A stretch of 24,874 nt of DNA from Deinococcales bacterium (lineage in GTDB: Bacteria > Deinococcota > Deinococci > Deinococcales > JAAFIG01). The position numbers were made by a program, and so were the translations under genes. The stretch spans positions 1 to 24,874 of the forward strand of contig JAYWGM010000047.1 of NCBI GenBank assembly GCA_043778225.1. The letters run 5' to 3'. The notes beneath the pieces were generated by a model. It did no database searches. It had not been told where the DNA came from and was given only the letters and a program-made list of their open reading frames with translations. Of the stretch, positions 862 through 22,209 are shown one piece after another (the stretch's first letter is position 1; every line of letters begins with the position of its first letter).

Positions 862-2964
862 ATGAAAACCTTCCTCCAACACGACCCTCGAGACTGCGGC
901 ATCGCTTGCTTGCGCTCTGTCCTTTTTGCTCAGGGCAATCTCTCGAGCGTGGATTCACTGCGCCAAATCGCAGCCACCACAACTTCGGGTACTTCTTCGC
1001 TGGGTTTGCGTTCGGCGGCGCAACGCATGGGCTTTGAGGCAAAGGCTTTAACGGCTGAACTGAGCGATATAAGCAGTCTCGAGCTACCCTGTATTTTGCA
1101 TTGGGACAACAGCCATTATGTGCTGCTCTGGCGAGTGCATAATGGTAAGGCACTGATTGGCGACCCTGCACTTGGTAAGAACATCTGGTGGAAACTCGAG
1201 GATATACATCAGCACTGGACTGGTAAACTCTTGTGGTTGCGTCCGGGAACTCACTTTATTCGTGGTAATTTTGTCGGCAAACGTGGTTGGGCTGGGCTTT
1301 TGGTGCATTTTGAGCAGTTTCGCGGCGCTGGTCAGGTCTTGCTCGAGATTGCTTTAGGGACACTTATTTTGTCTGTTCTTGGTTTAAGTGCGCCAATACT
1401 TTCGCAAGTGCTGTTTGACCGTGTGCTAACTTTCCGCGAGGAGCAATTGCTGCCGTATTTACTGGCGGGTATTTTTATTTTGTCGGGCTTCCAAACTGCG
1501 TTTGGTTCGGTGCGAGGCTATATCAGTAGTCATCTGGCAATGCGTTTAGATTATCGGCTTCATCTTGGCTACTGGGATCATCTGCTGCGTTTACCATTGC
1601 GGCAGCACGAAACGCGCTTGGTTGGGGATTTACTCCAGCGCTTCTCGGATTTAACGATGGTGCGAAATGTTCTCTCGAGCCTGATTGTCGGCTTACCAAG
1701 TTCAGTTTTTTCTTTAATGATTAGCGTGGTGCTTTTAATCACCTACAATCCAACTTTGGCGTTGGTTGCCAGTGTCAATATCCCGTTGCAACTGGCGTAT
1801 CTTTTTATTCTCTCGCCAATGCTGCGCGAAAACTCGAGGCGAGGCTTAAAAAAATCGGGCGAGGTGCAATCTTTTTTAATTGGTTCGCTCGAGGGGTTAA
1901 GCACGATCAAGGCTTGGCGAGCCGAGGATTGGGCGCTGGGGCGTGGACGGCAACAAATTTCGGATTCAATGCAGATTGGGTGGCAAGGCATGATGCTGTC
2001 AACTTGGGGTGGCGTGGTTTTTAGCTTACTCGGTAGCCTTGGCAATATGCTGGTGCTTTGGTACGGCGCGACGCAAGTCCTAAAACTCGAGCTAACGGTT
2101 GGGCAATTGGTGGCTGCCAGTGGGCTGATGGGCAATGCACTAGGCGCATTATCGGGCATTACCAGCGCGGTTATGGGTGTCCAAGAAGGGATTGTGGCTT
2201 CGGATAGGCTGGCAGAATTGCTCGAGATAATGCCCGAGACCGATAAAGGGATTCGGGAATTACAACCACTCGAGCATGGTTTAGAAGTGCAGGGCTTACA
2301 ATTTGGGTATTTACCCGAAATTCCAATTCTAAAAAGTGTTTCGTTTGGCTTACCCAAAGGTTCGTACACCGCTCTGCTGGGTTCTAATGGAAGCGGCAAA
2401 AGTACACTGGCGACCATTTTGGCGCGGATGCAGGACACAACCGACGGCAAAATTCTTTGGGACGGGATTTCTTTCACCGATGTGGCAGCAGGTGCGGCTC
2501 GAGAACGGGTTTTATACCTTCGCCAAGATGTCCCACTTTTTTATGCCACGCTGCGCGAGAACATTGCTTTGGGCGCAGAACTTGAAGATATGCAGCTTTG
2601 GGCGGTGCTGGGCGCGGTTGGACTCGAGCCGATGGCACGGCGTTTACCAGAAGGTTTGGACACGACCATTGGCGGCGAAAGCCTTTATAAATTATCCTCT
2701 GGTGAACGGCAAATGCTCGGCTTATCTCGAGCCTTGTGCAGTAAAGCCGACGTGCTGATTCTGGACGAACCAACCGCGACACTAGACATGGAACGTGAAC
2801 GGCGTGTGGTGCAGATTTTAACGCAACTCAAACACAGTAAAACCCTATTGGTGATTACGCACCGACCAGCCTTAATTGAACCAGCCGACCAAGTGCTGAG
2901 TCTCGAGGATGGGATGGTACGGGTTCTCGAGAAAGCAGACTTGGGAATGAGGGTAATGGCATGA
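862..2964 (+). CDS. Peptidase-containing ABC transporter (PCAT): C39 peptidase + TMD + NBD
   Basis: C39 motifs QHDPRDCG (Gln/Cys), LHWDNSHY (His), IGDPA (Asp); multiple TM helices; Walker A GSNGSGKST, signature LSSGERQ, Walker B LILDE, H-loop ITHR. Confidence 0.95.
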   Translation: MKTFLQHDPRDCGIACLRSVLFAQGNLSSVDSLRQIAATTTSGTSSLGLRSAAQRMGFEAKALTAELSDISSLELPCILHWDNSHYVLLWRVHNGKALIGDPALGKNIWWKLEDIHQHWTGKLLWLRPGTHFIRGNFVGKRGWAGLLVHFEQFRGAGQVLLEIALGTLILSVLGLSAPILSQVLFDRVLTFREEQLLPYLLAGIFILSGFQTAFGSVRGYISSHLAMRLDYRLHLGYWDHLLRLPLRQHETRLVGDLLQRFSDLTMVRNVLSSLIVGLPSSVFSLMISVVLLITYNPTLALVASVNIPLQLAYLFILSPMLRENSRRGLKKSGEVQSFLIGSLEGLSTIKAWRAEDWALGRGRQQISDSMQIGWQGMMLSTWGGVVFSLLGSLGNMLVLWYGATQVLKLELTVGQLVAASGLMGNALGALSGITSAVMGVQEGIVASDRLAELLEIMPETDKGIRELQPLEHGLEVQGLQFGYLPEIPILKSVSFGLPKGSYTALLGSNGSGKSTLATILARMQDTTDGKILWDGISFTDVAAGAARERVLYLRQDVPLFYATLRENIALGAELEDMQLWAVLGAVGLEPMARRLPEGLDTTIGGESLYKLSSGERQMLGLSRALCSKADVLILDEPTATLDMERERRVVQILTQLKHSKTLLVITHRPALIEPADQVLSLEDGMVRVLEKADLGMRVMA

Positions 2965-3956
2965 TACAAAGTATTGCTAAACCTCAACCAAAGAATAATA
3001 GTCTCGAGTGGCAGCAACCCTCGAGCCGTGTTGCCCACTTCACATTCTGGGTGCTGGCATTGTTTGTGGTGGTTGCCATTGCTTGGGCATCCATTACTCA
3101 AATTCAACTGTACGGCTTGGTGCTTGGGTCACTCGAGCCGATGAAAAAACTCAGTACCCTCGAAATGCCATTTGCTGGGCGGGTTCTCGAGATTCGGGCG
3201 CAACTCTGGCGTAAAGTCAAAAAAGGCGATGTGCTGTTTATTGTGGATGGCGTAGGCACAGATGCTGCCGAAAGTACCCTAAAACTCGAACGCACTAAAA
3301 ACCAACTGGCAGATGCCCTAAAAACGCTCGAGACGGCTCAGACCGATTCCACCCAACAAGCACGAAAACTCGAGTTGGTCAGGGCGGTGTTTGAAGTTGG
3401 GGCAGCTTCGCGGCTTGAATTTAAAGAAGCCCAAGAAAATGCGTCTCGAGCAAAGGTGATGCTCGAGCAAGCCCAATTGCGAATTCAGGGCTTAAAGCTC
3501 GAGCAAGTGCAGCAAAAACGTTTGTTGCGGCTGGTGGTTCGCGCTCCGATTTCTGGAACGGTGGCAACGTTAGCCGTTCAGCAGTCGGGAAAACTGGTTA
3601 ATATGGGAATGCCACTGCTCGAGATTTTACCAAGTGCTGCAAAGCTGGTTTTTCGCGGTGAGTTAGCCGAATCTGACCGCCCCAAAGTCAAAGAAAATGC
3701 CAAAGCCGAAGTTGCTTGGAATGCCTATCCGCGCCAAAAGTACGGCATTACCCACGGCATTGTGCAAGCCATTTCGCCAACCAGCAGTGGCAAATACGCA
3801 CTCGAGATTCGGTTTGGCAAATTGGTTCTCGAAGGTCCGCTCGGCAATCGCCCGTTGCTGCCCGGAATGACGGCAGAAGCTCGAGTGATTGCCGCCACCA
3901 AACCCGCGCTGGGGCTACTCTGGGATTGGTTACGCGGCATTAGCCCATTAGATTAA
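2961..3956 (+). CDS. HlyD-family membrane fusion protein
   Basis: N-terminal TM helix, lipoyl halves (PFAGRV...VKKGDVL; VRAPISGTV), central coiled coil, YPRQKYG and LLPGMTAEA motifs; ATGA overlap with the PCAT gene. Confidence 0.93.
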   Translation: MIQSIAKPQPKNNSLEWQQPSSRVAHFTFWVLALFVVVAIAWASITQIQLYGLVLGSLEPMKKLSTLEMPFAGRVLEIRAQLWRKVKKGDVLFIVDGVGTDAAESTLKLERTKNQLADALKTLETAQTDSTQQARKLELVRAVFEVGAASRLEFKEAQENASRAKVMLEQAQLRIQGLKLEQVQQKRLLRLVVRAPISGTVATLAVQQSGKLVNMGMPLLEILPSAAKLVFRGELAESDRPKVKENAKAEVAWNAYPRQKYGITHGIVQAISPTSSGKYALEIRFGKLVLEGPLGNRPLLPGMTAEARVIAATKPALGLLWDWLRGISPLD

Positions 3957-3963
3957 GGAGTGT

Positions 3964-5232
3964 ATGGTTATTCGAGTTTTGTTGTTTATCTTGTTTTGGT
4001 CGTTTGGCAATGCACAGACCGCTATTTCTCGAGCCGATGTCATGCGCCTAGCCGAACGCAGTGCCAGTGTCGAGGTGGCTCGAGCCAAGATGCAAAGTGC
4101 CGAGGCGCAAGCTCGGGCTGTTGGTGCGGGAATCTCGGGTAGCGCGTCTGGTTCGGCGGCTGTGGCAGGTATTGTGCCGAGTTCTGGCGATACAATTTTG
4201 TCGTATCCATGGTCTTTGCAACTCAATTTGCGTTTTGCTGGGGTGCTTGGCGAAGCTGGCGATGCTCGAGTTCAAGCAAGTATCAACCTCGAACGGGCGC
4301 GGCGTGGTCTGGTTGCCGCAAGGATACGGGCGTTATCTCAAGCGGTGAATTTGTGGCATGGTTTGCGGCGTGGCATGGCAAATCTCGAGGTGGCACAAAT
4401 GGCGTTACAATTGGCGTTACTCGAGGATGCGGCGGCAGAAACTCGCTTGAAATCTGGCAGCATCAGTTTGGCAGAACGCGAACGAATCGCTTTGGCTTTA
4501 GAATTTGCGTGGCTCGAGGTTTCACGCGCCGAGCTTCGCTTGTCTGGGGTGCGTTTACAATTCGAGGTTTTGTTTGGCTTGCGCCATGCTGTGGCTTTAA
4601 CGGTATGGCAGGCATTATCCGAACCTTTAACTTTTGACCTCGAAGCTCGAGAGGATATTTTTGAGGCGCGGGCGGCTGTGGTTTTGGCAAATGTACAGGC
4701 GGGTGCTGCACAGCGCGTACTTTTACCAACCCTCAATCTCGAGGCTTCGGTGCGTGGCAGCGCTGGGGTCTTATCGGTCAGTGGCAATCAATTTTTAGCC
4801 CTCAGTATTGGTTATTCGTATCCTGTGGCTTTACCTGTTGGAGTCTCGAGCAGTTTTAGTATCGGTCTTAATCTGAGCATTCCAATTCAGCCTTTGAATT
4901 TAAGCGCCGCCAATCGGGCAGGTTCTGCGGCTCAACGTTTGCTCGAGGTTGTACTCGCTTTGGCAAAAGCCGAAGTCATCACGGCTCGCTCGAGTTTGGT
5001 TTTGGCACATTCAACCCTAGATTTGGCATGGCGTTCAAACGAATTTGCAGCACGGCAACTCGAGCGGGTCAAGGCTAGAATTTTAGCAGGCTTGGTTTCG
5101 GTCTTGGACTTAAAACGAGCCGAATTGGATTTTGCCAAAGCTGGCTTAGAAGTTCTTGACGCACAAGCCAACTTTGATACGGCAAACCTTGAGTTAAGCG
5201 CTACTTTGGCACTGGTTATGGAGGCACAATGA
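3964..5232 (+). CDS. TolC-family outer membrane efflux protein (copy 1)
   Basis: SD AAGGAG upstream; signal peptide; two OEP repeats with RLKSGSIS and RILAGLVS turns; predicted beta-strand segments (LQLNLRF, LPTLNLEASV, IGLNLSIPI). Confidence 0.85.
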   Translation: MVIRVLLFILFWSFGNAQTAISRADVMRLAERSASVEVARAKMQSAEAQARAVGAGISGSASGSAAVAGIVPSSGDTILSYPWSLQLNLRFAGVLGEAGDARVQASINLERARRGLVAARIRALSQAVNLWHGLRRGMANLEVAQMALQLALLEDAAAETRLKSGSISLAERERIALALEFAWLEVSRAELRLSGVRLQFEVLFGLRHAVALTVWQALSEPLTFDLEAREDIFEARAAVVLANVQAGAAQRVLLPTLNLEASVRGSAGVLSVSGNQFLALSIGYSYPVALPVGVSSSFSIGLNLSIPIQPLNLSAANRAGSAAQRLLEVVLALAKAEVITARSSLVLAHSTLDLAWRSNEFAARQLERVKARILAGLVSVLDLKRAELDFAKAGLEVLDAQANFDTANLELSATLALVMEAQ

Positions 5233-6224
5233 TTCGGTTTATTCTGGTGGCACTGTGGGTTTCCTCGAGTATTGCAATGGCACAAATACCCGAAAAATGG
5301 TTTGTGGCGGCTTTAGCTCGGTCAGATGGTTTTGCCATTGCCTTTGGCGAGGCACAAAATGCCAAAGTTCGTTTACAACGTCTTAAATCCGACCCACTTG
5401 CCACTAAACCTTTATGGCTCGAAAGCAGTACAGCCTTAGAATTGGCAGAAGCTCGAGTTGTTGCCACTCGGCTTGAGGTACGGCGCAGTTTATTTCAAAA
5501 CATTTTTGCTTGGCGTAATGCTTTAGACACATTCGAGACTGCATCTGCCAAACTTAATTTGGCGGATGCAAGTGCTAAAGCCACCAATGCAAGATTTAAG
5601 GTTGGAGCAGTTACCAGCGTTGAAGTCAATCGTACCGAGGCAGAATTAAGAGCCACCCAAAGCGAAATCTCGAGCGCTCGATCAGAACTTGCAGCCACTG
5701 TCGAAGTTTTGCAAAATCAGCTTGGTTTTGCCCCTAATGCCATAACCCCAAGCCAAGCCCTACCGCGTCCAACACGTCAAGTCTTAGAACGTAATCTTGA
5801 TTCAAGTGTGCGAATCGTGGATGCCAAAGGCGCATTGGCTCGAGCCAAGTTAGACTTTGAAATTAAAGACAACGAATTTTCTGCACCTGTTGAAATCAGC
5901 GAAGCCAAACGAAATGTGAGCAATGCAGAACGCAATTTAGCGGATGCTCGTAATGGAGTAAAAGCCGCCCTCACGACTCGCTGGGAGGTCTATCAATCGG
6001 CGGCTGGAGCGCTGACGGCTCGAGAACGGGCGGTGCAATTGGCTACGGACGAATTAAAAACCCAAGTCGAGCGTTTAGCGCGCGGTCTGGTTTCTCAATT
6101 GGTGATTTTGCAGGCTCGAGTCGCTCTGGTGCAAGCCCAAAGTAACCTCGAGTTTAGCCACCAACGTTTGGCAACCAGTGTTCTCGAGTTAGCAATCTTG
6201 GTTAATTTGGATTTATGGCGATAA
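5229..6224 (+). CDS. Short TolC-family protein (copy 2), mostly alpha-helical
   Basis: Signal peptide; OEP-type turns RFKVGAVT and RLARGLVS; ATGA overlap with copy 1; only 331 aa. Confidence 0.8.
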   Translation: MIRFILVALWVSSSIAMAQIPEKWFVAALARSDGFAIAFGEAQNAKVRLQRLKSDPLATKPLWLESSTALELAEARVVATRLEVRRSLFQNIFAWRNALDTFETASAKLNLADASAKATNARFKVGAVTSVEVNRTEAELRATQSEISSARSELAATVEVLQNQLGFAPNAITPSQALPRPTRQVLERNLDSSVRIVDAKGALARAKLDFEIKDNEFSAPVEISEAKRNVSNAERNLADARNGVKAALTTRWEVYQSAAGALTARERAVQLATDELKTQVERLARGLVSQLVILQARVALVQAQSNLEFSHQRLATSVLELAILVNLDLWR

Positions 6225-6401
6225 AAATGGCGCGAGTCTGTCAGCCTGTGTTGCTGCGGCTGGTTACTTAGGATTTGTCCGTTAATAACTTTCTTGCCCC
6301 TGAAACAGCACCTTCGGGCTTTGGGCGCTTCCCGATTTGAGAACGAAAAAACATCTCCTCTTACAGGGCGAACACTTCTTGACCATAAACGCACACCTAA
6401 C

Positions 6402-6429
6402 GGGCATGGTCGCAAGGTTCGCACCCTAC
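6402..6429 (-). repeat. Degenerate or chimeric GTAG-type REP
   Basis: Minus strand reads GTAG-GGTGCGAACC-TTGC-GACCATGCCC and lies back-to-back with the REP at 6446. Confidence 0.55.
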
Positions 6430-6445
6430 AGAACAATGCTTTTTC

Positions 6446-6470
6446 GTAGGGGCGATGCTTGTCATCGCCC
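6446..6470 (+). repeat. GTAG-type REP (repetitive extragenic palindrome)
   Basis: GTAG followed by a perfect 8-bp stem: GGGCGATG-cttgt-CATCGCCC. Confidence 0.75.
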
Positions 6471-6530
6471 AGCCATTTACGGATTTTATTCTTGGACAAA
6501 TCCTTGGCAGCTCGAGTCGGAGAAAACATT

Positions 6531-6575
6531 CTTGGCGGGCAACGTCTTGGCGCGAGCGCCAAAAGTACCGTCAAG
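6531..6575. repeat. Extended hairpin
   Basis: Outer stem CTTGGCGG/CCGTCAAG (one G-U pair) and inner stem TTGGCG-cgag-CGCCAA. Confidence 0.5.
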
Positions 6576-6755
6576 TGGTGGTTAGAAAGCCAAGTTCATT
6601 GTCAGAACATCATGAATCCAGTTTACCAGCACTTTGCGGCTGGGCATTTTTACAAAAATAACGACCCAAAGCAGATTTGGCATTACTGGGCGGTTAATTT
6701 GCCGTACCAATTCAGTAAGCCATTTTGTGGATTGCTGTTTGGCTCGAGTCTCGGT

Positions 6756-6761
6756 TAAACT
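6756..6761 (+). promoter_or_regulatory. Candidate -10 box for the ABC-F leader transcript
   Basis: TAAACT (TANNNT) about 60 nt upstream of the leader uORF. Confidence 0.3.
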
Positions 6762-6823
6762 AATGTCACCACTCGAGAATTAGCTCGAGCGAGCGGCTGA
6801 CCACTTTTTCAAAGGATACCTGC

Positions 6824-6873: not shown

Positions 6874-6886
6874 CTTGGAGGTTCAC

Positions 6887-8488
6887 GTGAGCTTAACCAT
6901 GCGTGGAGCGCAAAAGCGCTTTGCCGATACACTTATTTTTGAAGATGTGACCCTCGAGTTACATCAGGGTCAGCGCGTTGCTTTGTTGGGTCGTAATGGC
7001 AGTGGCAAAACCACATTGCTGAAAATTCTGGCTGGACTCGAGCAACCCGATGCTGGAACAGTTACGAGGCTCGGGCGCGTTTCTTATCTCGCGCAGCGCG
7101 ATTGGCTCGAGGCTGGTTTACTGCGCGATGTGGTGCTGCCCGATACCTTAAAAAGTCTCAAAGCCAAGCTCGAGGTGGCACAAATTGCGCTCGAGAATCC
7201 AAGCCCCGAAAATCTTGAGCAATTTGCCCTTCTCGAAGAACAATTTAGAATTGCGGATGGCTATGACCTCGAGATTCGCGCCGAGGAAATTCTGGCTGGA
7301 CTGGGTTTAGAAGGTTCACGCTCGAGCCAAGCCTTATCGGGCGGGCAGGAACGCCGTGCCTTGCTGGCTCGGTTGCTGATTCAACCCGCCGATTTTTACT
7401 TGCTGGATGAACCGACCAATCATTTGGACTTGGAAAGTTTGGCATGGCTCGAGAACTGGATTTTGGCTCAGGAAGCTGGTTTTATGATTGTTTCGCACGA
7501 TAGGGCTTTTCTGGATGCGACTGTAGAGCGTTGTTTTGAACTCGAGCGGCAAAAGGTGACAGGCTATGATGGGAATTTTACCGAGGCGATGCAGCTTAAA
7601 AAAGCCATTCAAGAAAATCAATTATTGGCATTTGAAAATCACGAGCGCAAAGTCAAGCAATTATTTCTCGAGCGGCAGGCGGCAATTGCCCAAGCCTCGA
7701 GAAGCGAAAATAAGAACCGAGCCGGTAGCCGTGATGCCATGACAGCCAGTCATTTGATGAACCGAGCTTCGCATAAACAAGGACGACGAGCGCTGGCACT
7801 CGAAAAACGCATCGAACACATGGGCGAACTCGAGAAACCATTTGAGGATGATTTTTTGACCAAAATCCAATTGGGGGCTGTGCCTGTGGGTGCGTCCGAA
7901 GTTCTCAAATTCGAGAATGTGACAGTGCAACGCGCTGAAAAAACGATTCTCGAGAACACGAATTTATTTATTCGGCGCGGCGAAAAAGTAGCGCTAATCG
8001 GTGCAAATGGCGGCGGCAAAAGTACGCTCTTAAAAGCCATTCTTGGGCAACTCGAGTTTACGGGCAGTATTGTTCTCGGGCAGAATGTTTCGGTTTACTG
8101 GGCAGCCCAAAATACAGAAGAACTGAACGAATTTATCACGCTCGAGGATGCGCTTTTGGCTGCCAATCCGCGTTTACAAACCAAAGAAATCTATGCGCTT
8201 TTAGCCAGTTTAGGGCTTCCCAAAGAACCTTCTCGAGCCATTGCCACCTTGTCTGGCGGTCAGCGCACCCGTTTAACCTTGGCGAGGTTATCGGTCACTC
8301 GAGCTTCTTTTTTAATCCTCGATGAACCGACCAATAATCTGGATACCGACGCAATTGCTGCACTCGAGAAATTACTGCTCGAATATAATGGCACAGTGCT
8401 GCTGGCTTCGCACGACCGACGCTTACTCGAGACCATAGCAACCCGCAGAATTTTGGTACAAGACACAAAGCTGCTCGAGCAAAATTAA
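6887..8488 (+). CDS. ABC-F family ATPase, ribosome-protection (ARE)-like
   Basis: Two NBDs and no TM helices (GRNGSGKTT/LSGGQ/LDEPTNHLD; GANGGGKST/LSGGQ/LDEPTNNLD); long interdomain linker ending ALEKRIEHMGELEKP. Start moved to GTG 6887 because SD GGAGG is at 6877-6881. Confidence 0.9.
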   Translation: MSLTMRGAQKRFADTLIFEDVTLELHQGQRVALLGRNGSGKTTLLKILAGLEQPDAGTVTRLGRVSYLAQRDWLEAGLLRDVVLPDTLKSLKAKLEVAQIALENPSPENLEQFALLEEQFRIADGYDLEIRAEEILAGLGLEGSRSSQALSGGQERRALLARLLIQPADFYLLDEPTNHLDLESLAWLENWILAQEAGFMIVSHDRAFLDATVERCFELERQKVTGYDGNFTEAMQLKKAIQENQLLAFENHERKVKQLFLERQAAIAQASRSENKNRAGSRDAMTASHLMNRASHKQGRRALALEKRIEHMGELEKPFEDDFLTKIQLGAVPVGASEVLKFENVTVQRAEKTILENTNLFIRRGEKVALIGANGGGKSTLLKAILGQLEFTGSIVLGQNVSVYWAAQNTEELNEFITLEDALLAANPRLQTKEIYALLASLGLPKEPSRAIATLSGGQRTRLTLARLSVTRASFLILDEPTNNLDTDAIAALEKLLLEYNGTVLLASHDRRLLETIATRRILVQDTKLLEQN

Positions 8489-9418: not shown

Positions 9419-10063
9419 GTGAATGCAGTTGAATTGACAGGCTTGGTGCATCGTTATCAGCGCTCGTATGTGCTGCGCGGTACGAGCCTTGTCTTGCCTA
9501 AAAATCAAATTCTGGCGTTATACGGCGCGAATGGCTCTGGTAAAACCACGTTACTAAAAATTATTGCCTCGAGTCTTGTGCCAACAAGGGGTTCTGGCAG
9601 TATTCTTGGTATAGACCTTCGCAATCGGCTCGAATTACGCGGTCAAGTCTTAATTGTTTCGCACAGCCTTGGCTTTTACCCCGACCTGACTGGCACAGAA
9701 AATCTTGAGTTTGCCTTAAAAATGCACGACAAAACCGCCAATATCAAAGCCGCCCTTGAGGAAGTTGGTTTGCACAGCCAAAATCGGGTACGTGGTTACT
9801 CGAGCGGTATGAGAAAACGTCTGGCACTGGCTAAAATGCTGCTGCTCGAGCCAGATTTGATACTGCTGGATGAACCCTTTGCGGCGCTTGACCCTGAAGG
9901 GAAGAACTTGGTCGAAAAACTGATTCTCGAGCAACAACAACGCGGTGCGACTTTAATTATCGCCTCACATGAACCTGAACGCACCAATAAAATTGCCACG
10001 CTGGCAGTCATGCTCGAGAACGGCCTTATCTCTGAACCTCGAGAACCCGAGGTGGATTTATGA
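9419..10063 (+). CDS. ccmA: Heme ABC exporter ATP-binding protein
   Basis: Walker A GANGSGKTT, YSSGMRKRLAL signature, LLDEPF; directly precedes ccmB. Confidence 0.9.
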   Translation: MNAVELTGLVHRYQRSYVLRGTSLVLPKNQILALYGANGSGKTTLLKIIASSLVPTRGSGSILGIDLRNRLELRGQVLIVSHSLGFYPDLTGTENLEFALKMHDKTANIKAALEEVGLHSQNRVRGYSSGMRKRLALAKMLLLEPDLILLDEPFAALDPEGKNLVEKLILEQQQRGATLIIASHEPERTNKIATLAVMLENGLISEPREPEVDL

Positions 10064-10734: not shown

Positions 10735-10743
10735 GGTAGACCC

Positions 10744-12927: not shown

Positions 12928-12935
12928 GGGGGTTA

Positions 12936-13181: not shown

Positions 13182-13436
13182 ATCTTGAGTTTTCACAAAT
13201 TGCTTGGGAAGATTATTTGTGGTTTCAACAGCAATGAACCAAAGTCAATCAAGAAGATCAATCGGCTTATCGAAGAAAGTAAAAGAACTCCTTTTGCAGG
13301 AACGGGAAAACCCGAAGCACTCAAACATGATTATGCGGGTTTTTGGTCAAGGCGGATAACAGATGAACACCGAATTATTTATCAAGTCCGTGGAGAACAA
13401 TTGTTCATTGCTTCGTGTCGGTTTCATTATGAATAA
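13178..13436 (+). pseudogene. yoeB: YoeB/Txe toxin split by one extra base (frameshift)
   Basis: ATG 13178 gives MNLEFSQIAWEDYLWFQQQ* (stop 13235-13237). The rest (NEPKSIKKINRLI...GTGKPEALKH...WSRRITDEHRIIY...CRFHY) is in the +1 frame. Confidence 0.85.
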
Positions 13437-13445
13437 GGGGTTTGC

Positions 13446-15407
13446 ATGAGTTGGATTGGGGAAGTCACGGTTTTAACAGCACTGGTGTTCTGTGTTTTTG
13501 GTTTGTTCACGGCGTGGCGGGCAGCCACCACCTTGGATGCGCGGCTCGAGCAAACCGCACGACGCACGGCTGGAATTACTTTGTTGTTCTCGAGTGCTGG
13601 CTTAGGGATTTTATGGGCAGCACTTTTAACCAACGATACTTCGGTGCGTTATGTGGCAAATCATAGTGTTTCGACCAGTCCATTGTGGGTCAAAATTGTC
13701 AGTTTATGGGGCGCACTCGAGGGCAGTATTTTACTTTGGGCATGGATTTTGGCGGTTTTTACGGCGGTGCTGGCGTGGGTCGCCAAGCCCGATGCCCTGC
13801 GCCCCTATGCGCTGGCAGTGATGTTCTTTATTCTGACTTTTTTTCTGGGAATTAACGCCAGTGTCGGTAGCCCATTTATCGAAGTACCGATACCACCATT
13901 GGATGGTCGGGGTCCAAATGCGTTGCTGCAAAACCATTGGATGATGGCGGTGCATCCAGTCTTAATGTACATTGGTTTTGTGGGCTTAACCGTGCCGTTT
14001 GCCTATGCCATGGCGGCGCTCTTAACTGGGCAAGTCGGCGAGGCGTGGCTGGTGCAGACTCGGCGTTGGACGATGACGGCTTGGATTTTTTTAAGTGCCG
14101 CGATTATTGCTGGTGGCTGGTGGAGCTATGAAGTGCTGGGTTGGGGCGGTTACTGGGCATGGGATCCAGTCGAGAATGCCAGTATTATCCCGTGGTTTTT
14201 TGCGACCGCTTTTATTCACAGCTTACAAATTCAAGAACGCCGCCGAATGTTGGTTGGTTGGAACATGGGCTTAATCGTGGCGGCTTTTACCAGCACGCTG
14301 CTGGGTACTTTTTTAACCCGCAGTGGCATTGTACAAAGCGTCCATGCCTTTGCGGCTGGCGCAATCGGACCTGTGTTTTTTGGTTTTCTGGTGGTGGTGT
14401 TGGTTCTAACGCTTGGTATTGGCTACAAAAAACTGCACTTAATCCGCGATGAACACCAACTCGATAGTCCAGTCTCTCGAGAAGGGGCGTTTTTGATGGG
14501 CAATTTATTATTCTCGAGTTATGCCGCCACCGTTTTAATTGGTACACTCTTTCCGGTTTTTGTCGAAGGCTTTACGGGTGCAAAATCCTCGGTTGGAGCG
14601 CCATTTTTTAATGCCGTTGGTGTGCCGCTTGGACTGGGTATTTTGGGCTTACAAGCCATTGGTCCCGCCTTGGGCTGGCGACGTGCCACTGGTGAGGGTC
14701 TGCGCCAAAGCCTGACAATACCAGCCATTTTGGCAGTCGTCATGACCGTGCTTGGTTTTGTCTTGGGCGCTCGAGAATGGTCGGTGGTGCTGACGGTATT
14801 TTTTGCCTTCTTTAATATTTTTGTGATTGTGCGCCTGACCGATAAAGCCATTCAAAGCCGTCGCAAAGCCGTGGGGCAATCGTGGTTAGCCGCCATTGGC
14901 GATTTGGTCAATGCTTTCCCAAGGCGTTATGGGGCATATATTGCTCATTTTGGGGTGGTCGTGATCGCTTTGGGGATTGCTTTTAGTGGAGCATACAAAA
15001 CCGAGCAAGAAGTCAGTTTTAAGATTGGCGAAAATAAAACCGTGCTTGGGCATAACGTTACTTATTTGCGTTTGGCGGGCGAAGAACAACCAGACCGCTT
15101 TGTCAATGCTGCCGAAATTTTACTCGATGGTCAGAGCTTTTTTCCAGCCCAAAACCAGTATAAAACCCAACAGATGAATGTGGCGACACCCGCCGTGCAG
15201 TACAATTTTCTGGGCGATTTTTATGTAATTTTCTTATCGGCAGACGAAAAAGGCAGCCAAGTTGCCTTAAAATTTATCAACAGCCCATTGGTCAGTTGGA
15301 TTTGGTTTGGCGGACTGATTATCGTGATTGGTGCAGGATTAACCCTGATTCCAGCCATTCAAGTCCAAGCCTCGAGAAAGAAGAACGAAATGGTTGCAGC
15401 AGATTAG
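13446..15407 (+). CDS. ccmF: Cytochrome c heme lyase CcmF
   Basis: YVANHS, WGALEGS, VHP, WSYEVLGWGGYWAWDPVEN, FIHS and SVHAF motifs. Confidence 0.97.
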   Translation: MSWIGEVTVLTALVFCVFGLFTAWRAATTLDARLEQTARRTAGITLLFSSAGLGILWAALLTNDTSVRYVANHSVSTSPLWVKIVSLWGALEGSILLWAWILAVFTAVLAWVAKPDALRPYALAVMFFILTFFLGINASVGSPFIEVPIPPLDGRGPNALLQNHWMMAVHPVLMYIGFVGLTVPFAYAMAALLTGQVGEAWLVQTRRWTMTAWIFLSAAIIAGGWWSYEVLGWGGYWAWDPVENASIIPWFFATAFIHSLQIQERRRMLVGWNMGLIVAAFTSTLLGTFLTRSGIVQSVHAFAAGAIGPVFFGFLVVVLVLTLGIGYKKLHLIRDEHQLDSPVSREGAFLMGNLLFSSYAATVLIGTLFPVFVEGFTGAKSSVGAPFFNAVGVPLGLGILGLQAIGPALGWRRATGEGLRQSLTIPAILAVVMTVLGFVLGAREWSVVLTVFFAFFNIFVIVRLTDKAIQSRRKAVGQSWLAAIGDLVNAFPRRYGAYIAHFGVVVIALGIAFSGAYKTEQEVSFKIGENKTVLGHNVTYLRLAGEEQPDRFVNAAEILLDGQSFFPAQNQYKTQQMNVATPAVQYNFLGDFYVIFLSADEKGSQVALKFINSPLVSWIWFGGLIIVIGAGLTLIPAIQVQASRKKNEMVAAD

Positions 15408-15416
15408 GGAGTAAGC

Positions 15417-15959
15417 ATGAAAAAAGGATTCACCAACATTATTATTATTGGCGTGGTCATTGCGATTCTAGCAGTGCTGCTTGGTGGCTTACTCAGTCCG
15501 ACCAGTCCAAGTAACAAAAGTACGGCGGCACTCGAGGGTAAAGTCGCACCTGTTTTTGACTTAGCTATGATTAACGGCGGCAGAATTAAGCTCGAGCAAT
15601 TTAAGGGTAAACCCGTAGTCCTAAATTTCTTTGCGTCGTGGTGCGTGCCTTGTAAAGACGAAGCCCCGATGTTCTCGAGGGCGGCGGTTGAATACAGTAA
15701 AAAAGGTGTGGTTTTTTTGGGCATTGCTTACAACGATAAAGCCGATAAAGCTAAAGAATTTGCCAATCAATTCGACCTTGGTTTTCCAATTATGATGGAT
15801 GACTCGAGCGACAACGGACGAACCAGTGTTAAATATGCACTTTTTGGTGTGCCAGAAACCTTTTTTATAGACAAAAATGGTGTGGTGCAAAAACATTATC
15901 CTAAGCCAATCGAGCGCCCCGAACTCGAGGCTGGCTTAAAACTGGTGGGGGTAGAATGA
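15417..15959 (+). CDS. ccmG: Thiol:disulfide oxidoreductase CcmG/TlpA
   Basis: N-terminal TM helix, NFFASWCVPC, GVPETFFID. Confidence 0.9.
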   Translation: MKKGFTNIIIIGVVIAILAVLLGGLLSPTSPSNKSTAALEGKVAPVFDLAMINGGRIKLEQFKGKPVVLNFFASWCVPCKDEAPMFSRAAVEYSKKGVVFLGIAYNDKADKAKEFANQFDLGFPIMMDDSSDNGRTSVKYALFGVPETFFIDKNGVVQKHYPKPIERPELEAGLKLVGVE

Positions 15960-16441
15960 AAATCGTTGTTCTTGTGTTGTTGTTGTTTTCTGTTGCCCTT
16001 GCTCAATCAGACGCAAACCTCGAGAATAGGGTTCGTGCCATTGGTAATGAATTGCGTTGCCCCGTCTGTGGTGGTTCTGCTTTGACCGAAAGCCCATCGG
16101 ATTTTGCCCGCAGTATGCTTTCTGAGGTTCGGGCGCAAGTTAAAGCGGGTAAACCAGATGCAGAAATTTTTTCGTACTTCTCGGGTAAATACGGCAATAC
16201 GGTGCTACTCAAACCCCCATTTCAAGGAGTCAATATGATTATCTGGATTTTACCACTATTGGTCTTGGTCGCGGGTGCTGTCGTGCTGTGGAATTACTTA
16301 AAACGCAGCAGTCAGCAAAAACTTGAAATTGTCAATCCTGTGGCACTCGAGCAAGTTCGTAAGCAACTCGAGGCACAGCGCGACCAAACATATAACCCTG
16401 CAAGCCACGTAGCGCAAAGTGGTGCAAGTACAAATTTATGA
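15956..16441 (+). CDS. ccmH: CcmH/CycL
   Basis: Signal peptide, LRCPVC, YGNTVLLKPP, C-terminal TM helix. Confidence 0.92.
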   Translation: MKIVVLVLLLFSVALAQSDANLENRVRAIGNELRCPVCGGSALTESPSDFARSMLSEVRAQVKAGKPDAEIFSYFSGKYGNTVLLKPPFQGVNMIIWILPLLVLVAGAVVLWNYLKRSSQQKLEIVNPVALEQVRKQLEAQRDQTYNPASHVAQSGASTNL

Positions 16442-17580
16442 TTGCTTGGTTTATTTTGCTTGGCTTGGTGGCGTTGGCGTTGGCAACTTTTGCGTTGCTG
16501 CCACTTCGTGGTAACTCGGTGCAGATTCAAATTAAAACTAAAAAAGACGAACTCGAGGACGAACTCAGTACCTTGTATAGCCAAATTCGGGAACTTGAAC
16601 GGCAATTGGAAGACCAAGAAATGAGCCCAGAAGATTATCAGCGCTTTCGCTTGCGCGACGAAACTCGAGCCGCCAAACTATTGGAGACGATCGAAAAAGC
16701 CCCTGAGACTGGACCAAAAGTTCAACCTCGAGCCAACCTGCGCGGCGGAGCAATGATGTTTTTAGCAACCGCCGTTATTCTTGGCGGTCTGAGTGCTTTT
16801 GCTGTCCCAAACCTCGAGAAACTGGCATTACGAACCGGTGAGCGCGAACTGTTTGAAAATCAAAAAGAATTGCTGAGTATTGCAGGTGAACTCAATGAAC
16901 TTTCTAAGCTCGAACAAGCCAAGCCCGAAACCGAGCGCAAGGATTTACCACTCGAGAAATTACTGCGCTACGGCGATGTCGCGTGGGAACTCGAGCGCTT
17001 TGAAGATGCCGCTAAAGGCTACGGTTCGGCACTCAGGCAATTCACCGATGCTGCCAAAAAAACGCCAAGCGTCAAACCAAATACCGACAACATTAAAGCC
17101 CTCTCGAGGTACGGGCAAATTTTATTCTTTAATGGCGACAACGACCAAGCCCTGACGCTGCTTGAGACCGCCGCTAAACTTGGCAACGCCGAAGCATGGC
17201 TAACGATTGGTAACATTCGCTTCAGTGCTAAAAATGACCCCAAAGGTGCAATTGCGGCTTGGCAGCAATTCCAAAAAATCAACACCGATAAAGCCTTTGG
17301 CGCTCGAGTTCCAGATCTTATTGCCGCCGCCAAAACGCGCTTACGCGCAGTTGACCCCGGCGCGACTTTATTTGCTCAGAACTGCTCGGCTTGTCATGGG
17401 GCAGAAGCCCAAGGTTTGGTTGGACCGAACTTAAAAACCTCACAAAAAGCAAAAAGCTCAGACTTTCTCAAAAAACAACTGGCTAACGGCTCGAGCAACC
17501 AAGAAATGCCAGCCTTCAAGCAAATCCAAGGTAAAGATTTGGATAACTTGATTCAATTTGTGACTGGCTTAAAACCATAA
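16438..17580 (+). CDS. CcmI-like TPR protein fused to a class I cytochrome c domain
   Basis: TM-coiled coil-TM N-terminus (LYSQIRELE...EDYQ), TPR-like helices, C-terminal GATLFAQNCSACHG...GPNL...MPAF. Confidence 0.85.
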   Translation: MIAWFILLGLVALALATFALLPLRGNSVQIQIKTKKDELEDELSTLYSQIRELERQLEDQEMSPEDYQRFRLRDETRAAKLLETIEKAPETGPKVQPRANLRGGAMMFLATAVILGGLSAFAVPNLEKLALRTGERELFENQKELLSIAGELNELSKLEQAKPETERKDLPLEKLLRYGDVAWELERFEDAAKGYGSALRQFTDAAKKTPSVKPNTDNIKALSRYGQILFFNGDNDQALTLLETAAKLGNAEAWLTIGNIRFSAKNDPKGAIAAWQQFQKINTDKAFGARVPDLIAAAKTRLRAVDPGATLFAQNCSACHGAEAQGLVGPNLKTSQKAKSSDFLKKQLANGSSNQEMPAFKQIQGKDLDNLIQFVTGLKP

Positions 17581-17582
17581 CC

Positions 17583-18125
17583 ATGCCTCTGAATCGTCGT
17601 AAAATTCTCGAGTATTGGTGGCTTGCACCCATTGCTGCGGTGGCAGGTTTTTTTACATGGTTTGGGATTCGTTCTTGGAACATTCTGGTCGGTAAGCCTG
17701 CCCCGAGTGCAGTACCCCAATTTGTGGCTGCCCCAAAAGTGCGGGTGGCTCGAGTGGCAGACTTTCCAAAACTCTGGGATGCCATTGAGTTCAAAATTGG
17801 TACAACGCCAGCCATTTTGGTACGGGTGCAAAAACCACAACTTGGTGGGCTAAGCGTAGCTGGAAAGCACTTTATTGGACTCTCAAGAAACTGCACCCAT
17901 TTGCGCTGCCCAGTCGAGTACATTAAAAACCCCGAAATTACCGCCATGGCATACAAATACCGTCCTGAATTTGCCCATCCAGTCTTGGGTTGCGCTTGTC
18001 ATTTTAGTGCCTTTGACCCTGAGATGGCAGGAAAAAGTGTGTCGGGTCCAGCCTTGTTGCCACTGCCAAGGGTGCAACTCGAGGCTCGAGGCTCAGAAAT
18101 TTTTGCGATTGGACTCGAGGCGTAG
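17583..18125 (+). CDS. Rieske [2Fe-2S] protein with Tat-like anchor
   Basis: NRRKIL followed by a TM helix; CTHLRC and CACHFS boxes; SGPALLPLP. Confidence 0.92.
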   Translation: MPLNRRKILEYWWLAPIAAVAGFFTWFGIRSWNILVGKPAPSAVPQFVAAPKVRVARVADFPKLWDAIEFKIGTTPAILVRVQKPQLGGLSVAGKHFIGLSRNCTHLRCPVEYIKNPEITAMAYKYRPEFAHPVLGCACHFSAFDPEMAGKSVSGPALLPLPRVQLEARGSEIFAIGLEA

Positions 18126-18145: not shown

Positions 18146-19279
18146 TTAAAGTGTATCCAGCCACTCGAGAATTTCATGGCGATGCTCGTTTAACCTTGGT
18201 GGGGCTTGTCGAATTGGCAGGGCTTGACCGTCAAATTCAAATGGTGGCGCAGTCAGACGCACCTCGCCCAATTCTGGATGCTGCACGGTTTGTACCACGC
18301 CTCGAGACTTTGCCCAGTCTGACTCGAGTGCCTGAGCCACGCTCCAGACTGCCCCACATGGCACACCTGCTGATTGTAAACAGAGTATCGCCTCATCGCT
18401 CGAGAAACCTGCCAAGTGTGCCTCTAAACGCTGTGTAATCTCGAGCCGATGGCTTAAACGCTGCTGGTTGGTGGCAAAACGTGGCTCAAGTAAATCTGTG
18501 GCGTTAAGTGCCAAGCAAAGTTTTTGATACAAGCTATCGTTGCCAGCCGCGATATTGACAAAACTATCCGAGGTTTTATACGTGCCATACGGCACAATAC
18601 TGCGGTGTTCATTGCCCAGCCGTTCGGGTTCTTCGCCAGCATTTAAGTAGCGCGAAACTTGGTATGTGCCAAGCGCAATCATGCTCTCGAGCAGATTGAC
18701 CTCGATATGCCGCCCAAGCCCAGTGCTTTGACGTTCAAACAGGGCTGCCAGAATTCCTTGGGTCGCCAGCGAACCCGCAAAAATATCGGCAATCGCCACA
18801 CCCGCTTTGGTTGGATTCTTGTCGCCGGTGTAACTCATAAAGCCGCTCATGCCTTGGGCGATTAAATCGTAACCCGACCAGTCTTTGAGCGCCCCACTCG
18901 AGCCAAAGCCAGAAATGCTACAGGTGATCAAACGCGCCCTTGTGGTTATAATTCCCAACTTCTCGAGTGTCCCCGGGCGGTAATTCTCGACCAATACATC
19001 GGACGCATCCACAATTTGTTGGGCAAGCTCGAGGTCGCTTAGATTTTTTAAGTCTAAGGCAATGCTTTGTTTGTTGCGGTTAGCACTTAAAAAATAGGTG
19101 GCTTCTCTGTTCCCATCATGCTCGAGCCAAGGCGCACCCCACGCTCGGGTATCGTCGCCGTCGGGTGGTTCGATTTTAATGATTTTTGCCCCGAGGTCGC
19201 CAAGCGTTTGGGTACAAAACGGACCTGTTAAGACTCGGGTAAAATCGGCAACCACAATGCCAGACAAAGGAAGATTCAT
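18146..19279 (-). CDS. Family III CoA-transferase (CaiB/BaiF)
   Basis: PLSGIVVADFTRVLTGP, NRNKQS, ENYRPG, GYDLIAQG and catalytic IAD. Confidence 0.93.
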   Translation of the reverse strand: MNLPLSGIVVADFTRVLTGPFCTQTLGDLGAKIIKIEPPDGDDTRAWGAPWLEHDGNREATYFLSANRNKQSIALDLKNLSDLELAQQIVDASDVLVENYRPGTLEKLGIITTRARLITCSISGFGSSGALKDWSGYDLIAQGMSGFMSYTGDKNPTKAGVAIADIFAGSLATQGILAALFERQSTGLGRHIEVNLLESMIALGTYQVSRYLNAGEEPERLGNEHRSIVPYGTYKTSDSFVNIAAGNDSLYQKLCLALNATDLLEPRFATNQQRLSHRLEITQRLEAHLAGFSSDEAILCLQSAGVPCGAVWSVAQALESDWAKSRGVVQTVQHPELGEVRLTAPPFEFDGQALPIRQAPPRLNEHRHEILEWLDTL

Positions 19280-20235
19280 AAGCCACCTCTAAAAGCAGTT
19301 TTTATTTCGGCGCGAGTTGCCCCACCAGACAGCAGCACCAGCAATAAAATTCGGGCTTTGTGGGCATTCAAAAATGAAGCCGAAATCGCGCCGAGTTCTT
19401 GCAACTGTCTCCCGCCGCCTTCATAGCCATAAATCGGCAAAATTGCGCCCGTGTGGGTGCGGGTCGCAATCACCACGGGTTTGGCTGCGCCTGCAATAAT
19501 CGGCACAACGTCGGGCGGTACATTGCCAGTCCCTAAGGCGGCAATCACCACGCCATCGGCTCGAGCCAAGGCTTCTGGTAAACCTTGTCCGCGCCACCCA
19601 GCATAAGCGTAAACAATCTCGACCTTGGCGGCAACATTGTTGACGGCTTGGGTAACTCGAGCTTCGGGGATGGCAAAATACGAAATCATTGGCGCTCCTG
19701 CCAAAAAATCTATCCGCCCAATCGGACCTGGATAGCCCGCAAATGCCTCGAGTCGAGTGGTGTCGGTCTTGGTGACGGTGCGAGCATCAAAAATATCGCC
19801 AGCAAAAACCACCAGAACTCCACTTGAACGCGGCTCGAGTGCGACATGGGCTGCCGCCAAGACATTGCCAGGTCCATCCCATGATGCTTCTTCGGCGTGG
19901 CGCATACTGCCAGTCAGGACCACTGGCACATTTGTTTGAAGGGTTAAGTGCAAAAAAAACGCGGTTTCCTCGAGCGTATCTGTGCCATGGGTTAGCACAA
20001 TACCATCGTGATGAACGGCAACCGCTTGAATTAAATCGCGCAACTCGAGCATATGGGCTGGGGTGATGTGTGGGCTGGGCAAATTAAATGGCTGGAACAG
20101 CGAAATTTCAAATTGCTTGAGGCTTGGCAATGCCTCGAGTAAATCCAGCATGGCGTTGGCTGGAGTTAAATTGCCATTTGGGTCGGTGCGGCTGGCGATT
20201 GTGCCACCCGTCTGAATGAGTGCAAGGCGTTTCAT
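19276..20235 (-). CDS. L-asparaginase (cytoplasmic)
   Basis: TGGTIAS and THGTDTLEET motifs; start placed at ATG 20235 (MKRLALIQTGGT). Confidence 0.92.
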   Translation of the reverse strand: MKRLALIQTGGTIASRTDPNGNLTPANAMLDLLEALPSLKQFEISLFQPFNLPSPHITPAHMLELRDLIQAVAVHHDGIVLTHGTDTLEETAFFLHLTLQTNVPVVLTGSMRHAEEASWDGPGNVLAAAHVALEPRSSGVLVVFAGDIFDARTVTKTDTTRLEAFAGYPGPIGRIDFLAGAPMISYFAIPEARVTQAVNNVAAKVEIVYAYAGWRGQGLPEALARADGVVIAALGTGNVPPDVVPIIAGAAKPVVIATRTHTGAILPIYGYEGGGRQLQELGAISASFLNAHKARILLLVLLSGGATRAEIKTAFRGGL

Positions 20236-20244
20236 GATGCAATC

Positions 20245-20259
20245 AGCATACGGTACAGT
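20245..20259. promoter_or_regulatory. Back-to-back -10 boxes for the divergent asparaginase and rsmF-like genes
   Basis: Minus-strand TATGCT at 20245-20250 and plus-strand TACAGT at 20254-20259 within a 32-bp gap; no SD on either side. Confidence 0.5.
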
Positions 20260-20267
20260 AATACCCA

Positions 20268-21602
20268 ATGCGGCAACTTCCCAAAGAATTCATGGCACGA
20301 ATGCAAACCCAACTTGGGAGCGATTTTACCGCCTTCAAAACCGAACTCGAGAACGGCGAACGGCAATATGGCATCCGTAGCAATACCTTAAAAATAACTC
20401 GAGCAGAATTGGCGACCGAACTGAAATTAACCCAGACTATTCCCTGGTCAGAAAGCGGTTTATACGCCACTCGAGAAGCCCGACTTGGAGCGCATCCGCT
20501 TCACCATGCTGGGGCATACTATGTCCAAGAACCCAGCGCTCAGGCGGTGGCGCACGCCTTAGAGTTAAAACCCAATCTGCGGGTGCTGGATTTATGTGCT
20601 GCACCCGGCGGAAAAAGCACCCACTTAGCCGCCCTGATGCAAAACCAAGGGGTCTTGGTCTGCAACGAAATCAGTGCTACGCGGGGCAGAGCTTTAGCCG
20701 AAAACCTCGAGCGACTGGGCTGTGTTGGTATTGTTAGCAACGAAGAACCCGCCCGACTGACCGAAAAATGGGGTGCATATTTTGATCGAATTCTGGTGGA
20801 TGCGCCGTGCAGTGGTGAAGGAATGTTTCGTAAGCACACGGCAGCCATTCAAAGTTGGTCTCTAAACCATGTCAAAACCTGTGCCGTGCGCCAAAGTGCC
20901 ATCCTCGAGAACGCCGTGGCACTGCTGGCTGATGGCGGGGTTTTGGTTTACAGCACTTGTACTTTCGCGCCTGAAGAAAACGAGAATGTGATTGTCGGTT
21001 TGCTCGAGCAGCACCCAGAATTGAGGCTTGAAACAATTGATGGGTTTACAAGTGGAATCAATGGCATTGGCTCGAGATTGTACCCGCATTTAATTCGTGG
21101 CGAAGGACATTTTTTGGTAAAGCTCCGAAAAAGGTCACGAGGTGAGGCAAGCCCCACCCCTACGGATGGAGGGATTGATCTTGTTTCTACGGTGAAGGAT
21201 AAAAAAACTTTTTTAGAATTCACCCAAGAATTTGCTGTGCCAGAAGGTGTCGCCCTCGAGTTTCGCGGTGAAATTCAGATCGCACACCCAAACAGCCCAA
21301 GTCTCGAGGGCATTCGGGCATTACGGGCTGGAATTCCAGTCGCACAAATTCAAAAAAACCGACTCGAGCCACATCATGGCTTGTCTCGAGTCATCCAAGG
21401 CTTTGGTAATGTGGTCGAACTCGAGCCAATAGAAGTGGGGGCTTATCTGCATGGCGATACCATTTCTCGAGCAGGCAGTGCTGGCTGGGTTTTGCTGCAA
21501 ACCCAAGGCTTGGCGCTTGGTTGGGGTAAACGGGTTGGGCAGACAATCAAAAATCATTACCCCAAGCATTTACGTGGCAATTTGGTGTTGCTCGAGGACT
21601 AA
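20268..21602 (+). CDS. rsmF: rRNA m5C methyltransferase, RsmB/RsmF (NOL1/NOP2) family
   Basis: YYVQEPSA, LDLCAAPGGKST, LVDAPCSGEG, VYSTCT and C-terminal PUA-like KNHYPK. Confidence 0.9.
   Translation: MRQLPKEFMARMQTQLGSDFTAFKTELENGERQYGIRSNTLKITRAELATELKLTQTIPWSESGLYATREARLGAHPLHHAGAYYVQEPSAQAVAHALELKPNLRVLDLCAAPGGKSTHLAALMQNQGVLVCNEISATRGRALAENLERLGCVGIVSNEEPARLTEKWGAYFDRILVDAPCSGEGMFRKHTAAIQSWSLNHVKTCAVRQSAILENAVALLADGGVLVYSTCTFAPEENENVIVGLLEQHPELRLETIDGFTSGINGIGSRLYPHLIRGEGHFLVKLRKRSRGEASPTPTDGGIDLVSTVKDKKTFLEFTQEFAVPEGVALEFRGEIQIAHPNSPSLEGIRALRAGIPVAQIQKNRLEPHHGLSRVIQGFGNVVELEPIEVGAYLHGDTISRAGSAGWVLLQTQGLALGWGKRVGQTIKNHYPKHLRGNLVLLED
21141..21163 (-). repeat. GTAG-type REP inside the rsmF coding sequence
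   Basis: Minus strand GTAG-GGGTGGGGC-tt-GCCTCACC; translated as GEASPTPT in the interdomain linker. Confidence 0.65.
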
Positions 21603-21603
21603 A

Positions 21604-22209
21604 ATGCTGATTCGGTCGTATACCCTTTTGGATTATCCGCAATTGCTTGAGCTTCAACGGGCGTGTTTCCCCGCGCCTTACCCAGAAGATCAGCTTTGGA
21701 GCAGAGCCCAAATTGCGTCGCACCTCGAGCATTTTGCAGCAGGGGCGCTTTGTGTCGCCGAAAACGGGCTGATTATTGCTTCGGCAACGGCTTTAATCCT
21801 CGAGCATCCAGCCCACACTTTTGCTCAAGCCACCGATAATGGCTTTATTGGCAACCACAATTCGCAAGGCGACACGCTTTATGGGGTGGATATGGCGGTG
21901 CATCCAGCTTGGCGCGGACGCGGAATTGCGCGGATGCTGTATCAGGCTCGGTTTAGGTTGGTGCAGCAATTAGGCTTGAAGCGTTTTATGGCGGCTGGAC
22001 GAATGCCAGGACTCGAGAACCACTCCAATTTAAGCCCCGAAGAGTATGTGGAAAAAGTGGTGGCTGGTGAACTAACCGACCCAACACTGACCCCACAACT
22101 TAAAAATGGTTTGACACCCACAAAAGTCTTACACCAATATATCGAAGATGCCCAGTCAAGGAATTGTGTGCTTCTACTCGAGTGGAGGAATCCGTTATTG
22201 CCAATATAA
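21604..22209 (+). CDS. GNAT acetyltransferase (YkwB-like)
   Basis: LQRACFPAPYP, LYGVDMAVHPAWRGRGIAR, GRMPG and DPTLTPQL; starts 1 nt after the rsmF stop. Confidence 0.88.
   Translation: MLIRSYTLLDYPQLLELQRACFPAPYPEDQLWSRAQIASHLEHFAAGALCVAENGLIIASATALILEHPAHTFAQATDNGFIGNHNSQGDTLYGVDMAVHPAWRGRGIARMLYQARFRLVQQLGLKRFMAAGRMPGLENHSNLSPEEYVEKVVAGELTDPTLTPQLKNGLTPTKVLHQYIEDAQSRNCVLLLEWRNPLLPI

Follow-up and report, generated by a model that had tools for sequence, protein, structure and literature searches.

A family-wide, HIP1-like excess of the palindrome CTCGAG in Deinococcales that acts on DNA and reshapes proteins

The window analysed here, a stretch of 24,874 nt from a Deinococcales bacterium, carries the palindromic hexamer CTCGAG in its transporter, cytochrome c maturation and metabolic genes so often that a sequence-only reading had likened the word to highly iterated palindrome 1 (HIP1) of cyanobacteria. 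In total, we counted 164 copies, the first at position 887 and the last two at 22921 and 23461. Between positions 861 and 22209 (21,349 bp; 49.3% guanine plus cytosine, GC), 162 copies stand against 5.1 expected from base composition, the expectation used for all window counts, which is a 32-fold excess and agrees with the earlier estimate of about 160 copies in about 21.3 kb. In the curated open reading frames (ORFs), codon phases 0/1/2 hold 95/36/28 copies; 142 copies lie in plus-strand genes, 17 in minus-strand genes and five between genes, as had been claimed, and the flanking bases show no consensus. The earlier counts for the two ends of the window (Table 1) also hold. However, composition alone predicts 0.05 copies in the left and 0.22 in the right flank; both are poor in CTCGAG in part because they are AT-rich, and the right-flank pair is still above chance.

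Table 1. Features of the 24,874-nt window.
Feature	Position	Strand	Remarks
Left AT-rich flank	1..860	.	GC 30%; 0 CTCGAG; ORF 318-806 without Pfam match
Peptide-export cluster	318-6224		Peptidase C39 ABC transporter, HlyD, two outer-membrane efflux genes
Dispersed CTCGAG	887..22182	.	162 copies, one per 132 bp; transporter, cytochrome c maturation, metabolic and rRNA-methylase genes
Short intergenic repeat	6285-6480		About 20-40 partial genome copies; very high contig depth in sequencing runs
Intergenic CTCGAG	6511, 6743, 6772, 6784 (6511..6789); 9399	.	Four copies and a fifth
ABC-F type ATPase gene	6875..8488	+	Densest in the window: 20 CTCGAG, 16 read as Leu-Glu
Cytochrome c maturation cluster	9419-18125		Interrupted by the next entry
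Uma2 nuclease-domain gene and small antitoxin-like ORF	12373-13181		
CoA-transferase III and asparaginase genes	18146..20268	-	17 CTCGAG, all three phases
Right AT-rich flank	22210..24874	+	GC 33%; 2 CTCGAG (22921, 23461) within the 785-aa ORF
785-aa low-GC ORF	22362-24719		Two GHKL-type ATPase domains: N-terminal GHKL ATPase and C-terminal histidine-kinase ATPase domain

The excess extends through the genome to which the window belongs (G000; 4,029,277 bp in 107 contigs of at most 154 kb, 89% complete). With 24,877 copies, or 6.17 per kb (about one per 160 bp), CTCGAG is its top hexamer, 15-fold over a second-order Markov model, and each of the 107 contigs carries 4.0-10.6 copies per kb. Based on our own gene calls (3,942 ORFs), the density is 6.2 per kb in coding and 5.7 per kb in intergenic DNA; by codon phase, the copies divide into 13,802/4,499/4,564, with 2,022 intergenic. 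In the 3,517 best-scoring genes, which were used for all shuffles, 22,126 copies compare with 2,380 after synonymous codon shuffling (9.3-fold) and with about 1,020 after shuffling of codon order (21-fold). The excess therefore survives a codon-preserving null model and is not confined to the window.

The excess acts at the DNA level and reshapes the proteome, as the sequence-only reading had proposed. Leu-Glu is the most over-represented dipeptide (2.33-fold), with Glu-Leu at about 1, so that a force on DNA more than doubles one dipeptide across the proteome. Among 19,240 Leu-Glu pairs, 70% are spelled CTC-GAG; outside Leu-Glu, CTC provides 9% of Leu codons and GAG 22% of Glu codons. The Leu-Glu phase accounts for 13,395 of the 22,126 coding copies. 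One-off variants, which had been thought frequent, are not enriched: the nine variant pairs reach 0.24-0.97 of the synonymous-shuffle expectation genome-wide. TCGA outside CTCGAG is not enriched either. Transfer RNA (tRNA) and transfer-messenger RNA genes hold six copies in 5,658 nt, and occupancy declines mildly, from 0.63 to 0.55, along a codon-bias proxy of expression. With just 243 copies, the 8-mer CCTCGAGG falls below the 1,100-2,200 counted with other flanks, and most of the core genes in which CTCGAG is scarcest encode solute-binding proteins. The use of the word as a marker of residence time held in part: foreign-looking genes below 36% GC carry 0.1-0.6 copies per kb, but several copies per kb have already built up in restriction-modification genes of 38-45% GC, so the marker is a fast one.

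Across a sample of 121 genomes of the order, one family of 19 genomes stands out (f1, including G000; completeness 57-94%), all 19 of which carry 4.3-6.8 copies per kb (genome sizes rounded). Genera g13, g22 and g24 have 1.4-3.4 per kb, the 17 genomes of g9 have 0.6-1.1, near the reversed-word control, and the 29 genomes of g7 have 0.01-0.27. In sampled stretches, the excess over the codon null is 5.3-fold in G013, 3.6-fold in G010 and 1.4-2.4-fold in five genomes outside the family. Sharing with other Deinococcota, raised earlier as a possibility, thus holds strongly for one family and weakly (about 1.4-2.4-fold) for some others, but fails for g7 and g9. By codon-corrected enrichment, g11 belongs with g13, g22 and g24 among the mild cases. 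G013, a single contig of 5.09 Mb, is even along its length, with 4.1-4.9 copies per kb in six 20-kb samples. A plasmid of Allomeiothermus silvanus (NC_014213) has 599 CTCGAG against 99 GAGCTC. Overall, the excess is real and family-wide; we found no paper on it in Deinococcota in a literature search that did not cover subscription papers and bioRxiv supplements.

To characterize the force involved, we contrasted synonymous changes alone, with neighbour bases controlled. All 18 one-base synonymous contrasts, which cover all six positions, favour CTCGAG, with odds ratios of 18-42 for the six transitions and 67-495 for the 12 transversions. Because all six positions and also transversions are favoured, repair of one mismatch at one position is excluded. 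T-to-C neighbours of CTCGAG are as frequent as C-to-T neighbours; because C-to-T changes are not in excess, the decay signature that 5-methylcytosine (m5C) would leave is not seen. In 202 kb of aligned codons per genome pair, G000 shares 854 of 1,321 sites with G003 and 817 of 1,335 with G006, against a background of 49 and 58% divergent four-fold sites, respectively; the window genes were compared as well. CTCGAG sites are conserved beyond background yet turn over.

Neighbouring sites interfere with each other. The occupancy of coding opportunities is 0.35, 0.60 and 0.72 where the nearest site lies <21, 30-49 and 100-299 bp away, compared with 55, 61 and 62% after permutation, and the rise from 30-49 to 100-299 bp is 0.121 observed versus 0.014 +/- 0.009 in 40 permutations. 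Spacing in G000 is under-dispersed, CTCGAG-free stretches reach 5.6 kb, and pair counts up to 2 kb revealed no helical or other short periodicity. The relation between the isolation of a site and its conservation between genomes is noisy beyond 20 bp. Because transversions are favoured and neighbours interfere within about 100 bp, the pattern speaks against repair of the Vsr type and favours a benefit per DNA segment, probably with diminishing returns.

The word also marks the viruses of the family. A clustered regularly interspaced short palindromic repeats (CRISPR) array on contig C80 of G000 has 43 spacers, 10 of which contain CTCGAG (about 8 per kb; 0.3 expected). Apart from the array itself, the assembly of G000 has no match to them; one agrees with G001:C690 in 32 of 34 nt, in the neighbourhood of a packaging ATPase and VP16/VP17-like capsid genes (PHROGs; PDB 3zmo, E=6e-21; P23-77, IN93). 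P23-77/IN93-like single-jelly-roll virus sequences occur in the family on G001:C690, G001:C298 and G016:C309. These three contigs, from two genomes, carry 2.8, 3.5 and 5.0 copies per kb, and their ORFs hold 52 copies versus 4.6 expected under the codon null (11.3-fold), whereas four homologous stretches outside the family together with phage P23-77 have 0.1-0.4 per kb, or 13 copies versus 16.7 expected (0.78-fold). Likewise, Leu-Glu is spelled CTC-GAG in 39 of 52 cases on the family contigs and in 20 of 195 in the outside homologues. The spacers with CTCGAG, the spacer match to a P23-77-like contig and the enrichment of the family's virus contigs are new here, and the mark could serve for host assignment and as a marker of amelioration. 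A scan of viral contigs for triple CTCGAG (at least 131 loci) was discarded; the loci listed lay mostly on high-GC contigs in which GAGCTC was also common, with no link to the family. Screening viral contigs for VP16 likewise yielded no relative, and the examined stretches of related genomes contained no further CRISPR arrays.

Among other systems, the sequence-only reading had pointed to a methylase of the XhoI, PaeR7I or TaqI type and a Vsr-like partner. G000 has 24 candidate DNA methylases, many adjoining a likely partner gene, and it avoids restriction-type words: GGCC occurs 131 times versus about 20,900 expected (0.6%), and 32 of 64 palindromic hexamers lie below 0.1 of expectation. Such strong avoidance is seen in G000 and in genera g1 and g5, and in G000 the dipeptides Trp-Pro and Gly-Pro are at 0.10 and 0.35 of expectation. 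Extreme avoidance was rejected as a prerequisite of the CTCGAG excess, as it is mild in G013 and G010, where CTCGAG is still present.

No methylase and Vsr partner of the expected kind was found family-wide, and the substitution pattern is unlike that of Vsr. The orthologue search compared G000 with five well-assembled family genomes, each at least 91% complete. Neither PF01555 (without a match in G013) nor PF00145 (without a match in G010) gave an orthologue common to G000 and these five; their PF02086 matches are not orthologous to those of G000; the two PF07669 matches in G013 are just 25-32% like those of G000, with no common orthologue; and TaqI_C, in 6 of the 19 family genomes, is not family-wide. 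In G000, the profiles for Vsr, the TaqI nuclease and terminase had no match; the XhoI profile had none either, but its control also matched nowhere, so that this blank is uninformative. In total, no family-wide CTCGAG methylase was found; these searches by family did not extend to type I systems, MT-A70 or modification other than methylation. Three single enzymes were set aside. The orphan C5 methylase at G000:C2:28343 has close matches in 4 of 18 relatives, and its plasmid matches include one annotated HindV. The other two candidates come from enriched genomes outside the family: the M.TaqI-like Eco57I-domain methylase of G025, and an Eco57I-domain enzyme of G030, which resembles enzymes of mobile plasmids and which we take to be PaeR7I-like. 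Neither has a close match in any of the 19 family genomes.

Methylases of CTCGAG are known from a related order. N6-methyladenine (m6A) methylases for the word without a cognate nuclease, named M.Mhy14884I, M.Mru1279II and M.Mch9957IV, are listed for Marinithermus hydrothermalis, Meiothermus ruber and M. chliarophilus (PMC4752239 S3); no matching family-wide enzyme was found in the CTCGAG family. For M. silvanus (= Allomeiothermus silvanus), CTCGAG is not among the five published methylated motifs (PMC4752239 S4).

Our leading, still tentative reading is that a host sequence-specific protein may recognize CTCGAG as a mark of self, favouring marked segments in DNA uptake or recombination. An allele with an intact CTCGAG would win over one without it, because it is taken up preferentially, shielded from degradation or favoured in recombination, and one copy per stretch of about 100 bp would give most of the benefit. 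Viruses would acquire the word in the same way during residence, or would mimic it, and the orphan m6A methylases of cultured relatives would have come afterwards, protecting a word that was already abundant rather than giving rise to it. The competence machinery is present: ComEC occurs in 18 of the 19 family genomes, and genes resembling those for DprA, ComEA, PilT and pilins were detected by motif.

The closest known parallel is HIP1 (GCGATCGC), which CTCGAG resembles, together with the alternative cyanobacterial HIPs, as a short, perfect, dispersed palindrome that occurs lineage-wide both inside genes and outside them and is conserved to a degree for which codon choice does not account (PMC4390886; PMC5861425; PMC13756078). 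CTCGAG shows several features of the class: it is a perfect short palindrome at least 15-fold over-represented, present in all frames and between genes, with conserved sites. It is nevertheless HIP1-like and not HIP1: it is a 6-mer without a conserved flank in another phylum, it reaches 6,170 copies per Mb versus 300-2,700 for HIP1 (PMC4390886), and CGATCG is depleted in G000 (182 copies, 0.11). In these incomplete genomes and the limited families searched, no conserved orphan methylase for the word, and no family-wide DmtA/DmtC-like enzyme, was found. HIP1 is described as raising transformation in Synechococcus PCC 7002 (10.1101/2024.09.10.611283). CTCGAG would be a second, denser HIP1-like case with another word, where the function of HIP1 has been unsettled for three decades with one phylum studied. 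Its grading across one order (extreme, mild, absent), apparently uncoupled from methylases, opens the way to phylogenetic profiling for a reader protein and to tests in cultured relatives.

Like CTCGAG, the DNA uptake sequences of Neisseriaceae and Pasteurellaceae build up in competent lineages, alter proteins and tend towards even spacing, and they have been explained by an uptake-driven molecular drive (PMC1939737). They differ from CTCGAG, whose one-off variants are unenriched. Chi is polar, whereas CTCGAG is palindromic and is therefore not a polar word of the kind read by RecBCD or AddAB. The likeness to Chi is that of a short, over-represented self mark that is also over-represented in the phages of its host (PMC3784561). 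In Nocardia, CTCGAG clusters near dnaA (PMC4752239), whereas here it is genome-wide and not origin-clustered as far as sampled.

Several points weigh against a self mark in uptake or recombination. No reader protein was found, and we infer the uptake or recombination step from the pattern. Known uptake sequences, including those of Neisseriaceae and Pasteurellaceae with their known receptor, are longer and not palindromic. All 22 genomes compared from outside the family have ComEC as well, even those that lack CTCGAG enrichment altogether, and the AddAB/RecB-type nuclease domain (PF12705) had no match in G000 or in 5 of the 18 remaining genomes of the family, so a Chi-like reading via AddAB is not general. 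At 7-12 bp, depletion extends to other inverted hexamer pairs (0.6-0.8; first 1,200 genes), and hairpin avoidance may be part of the cause of the shortest-range avoidance, although it does not explain the rise to 100 bp. The family's virus contigs could represent proviruses of long residence, and composition-based binning would favour CTCGAG-rich contigs. Binning does not affect the spacers, but no target was identified for 42 of the 43. The excess on the A. silvanus plasmid is just about 2-fold over the codon null (46 vs 23). The methylase evidence comes from genomes 57-94% complete and, across genomes, from just six methylase and nuclease Pfam families, and m5C is poorly seen by PacBio sequencing. 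Lastly, CTCGAG is methylated in three cultured relatives (PMC4752239).

It is also conceivable, if speculative, that CTCGAG forms a methylation-independent watermark, in which a host protein of this family would gauge the density of the word to tell self from foreign, with enough force to rewrite the proteome, and P23-77-like viruses would have copied the mark. If true, this would add a new system of self-recognition and would offer an independent model of the role of HIP1.

Methyl-directed repair drive, Elhai's model for HIP1, in which an enzyme marks CTCGAG, mismatch repair keeps the marked strand and sites accumulate to saturation (PMC4390886), appears unlikely here. The model does predict saturation with distance and action on virus DNA, and it gains from the active orphan m6A methylases of the three cultured relatives (PMC4752239 S3), from the MutS- and MutL-like genes found by motif and from the many candidate methylases of G000. 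It would nevertheless need an enzyme from a family not searched, or one missed in the assemblies, since none of the families compared, nor the enzymes of G025 and G030, supplies a family-wide orthologue. The absence of a C-to-T neighbour excess and the unenriched TCGA count against it as well, as does saturation near 100 bp versus 1,000 in the model (PMC4390886).

Slightly less likely still is a role in chromosome architecture, as proposed for HIP1 (PMC5861425), with a nucleoid or condensin-loading protein that binds CTCGAG at regular short intervals and selection that holds its density. The even density along G013, the under-dispersed spacing, the conserved sites and a palindrome suited to a dimeric binder would fit such a protein, but the missing periodicity, the tolerated CTCGAG-free stretches and the word's presence on virus contigs and in spacers would not. 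An improbable alternative is a self mark in defence, in which a nuclease or silencer attacks DNA stretches without CTCGAG and viruses mimic the mark. The marked spacers and virus contigs and the restriction-modification-rich genome with its avoided hexamers are in keeping with this, but CTCGAG-free low-GC islands persist, no candidate system was found, and G013 and G010 combine CTCGAG with mild restriction-site avoidance. A site-autonomous mutational or Vsr-type bias, or a codon or protein effect, is very improbable and largely refuted already, for despite the dominance of the Leu-Glu phase, all six positions and transversions are favoured, G000 has no Vsr match and no single-C-position gain by T:G repair as in a Vsr/Dcm very-short-patch drive, intergenic DNA is nearly as dense as coding DNA, neighbours interfere and Glu-Leu is unenriched.

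Apart from CTCGAG, several features of the window and its genome deserve mention. The low-GC ORF without a Pfam match that heads the peptide-export cluster is 95% identical in G003. The N-terminal domain of the 785-aa ORF has a weak match, below the cut-off, to the BbrUII/HgiDII family, and G000:C55 may hold a comparable neighbourhood next to a C5 methylase; the right flank with this ORF looks like a recent acquisition. Rfam had no match within the window, and four primer motifs detected no ribosomal RNA in G000. By appearance, the short intergenic repeat is of the repetitive extragenic palindromic type, and at least 15 tRNA genes are clustered at G000:C19:9937-12769.

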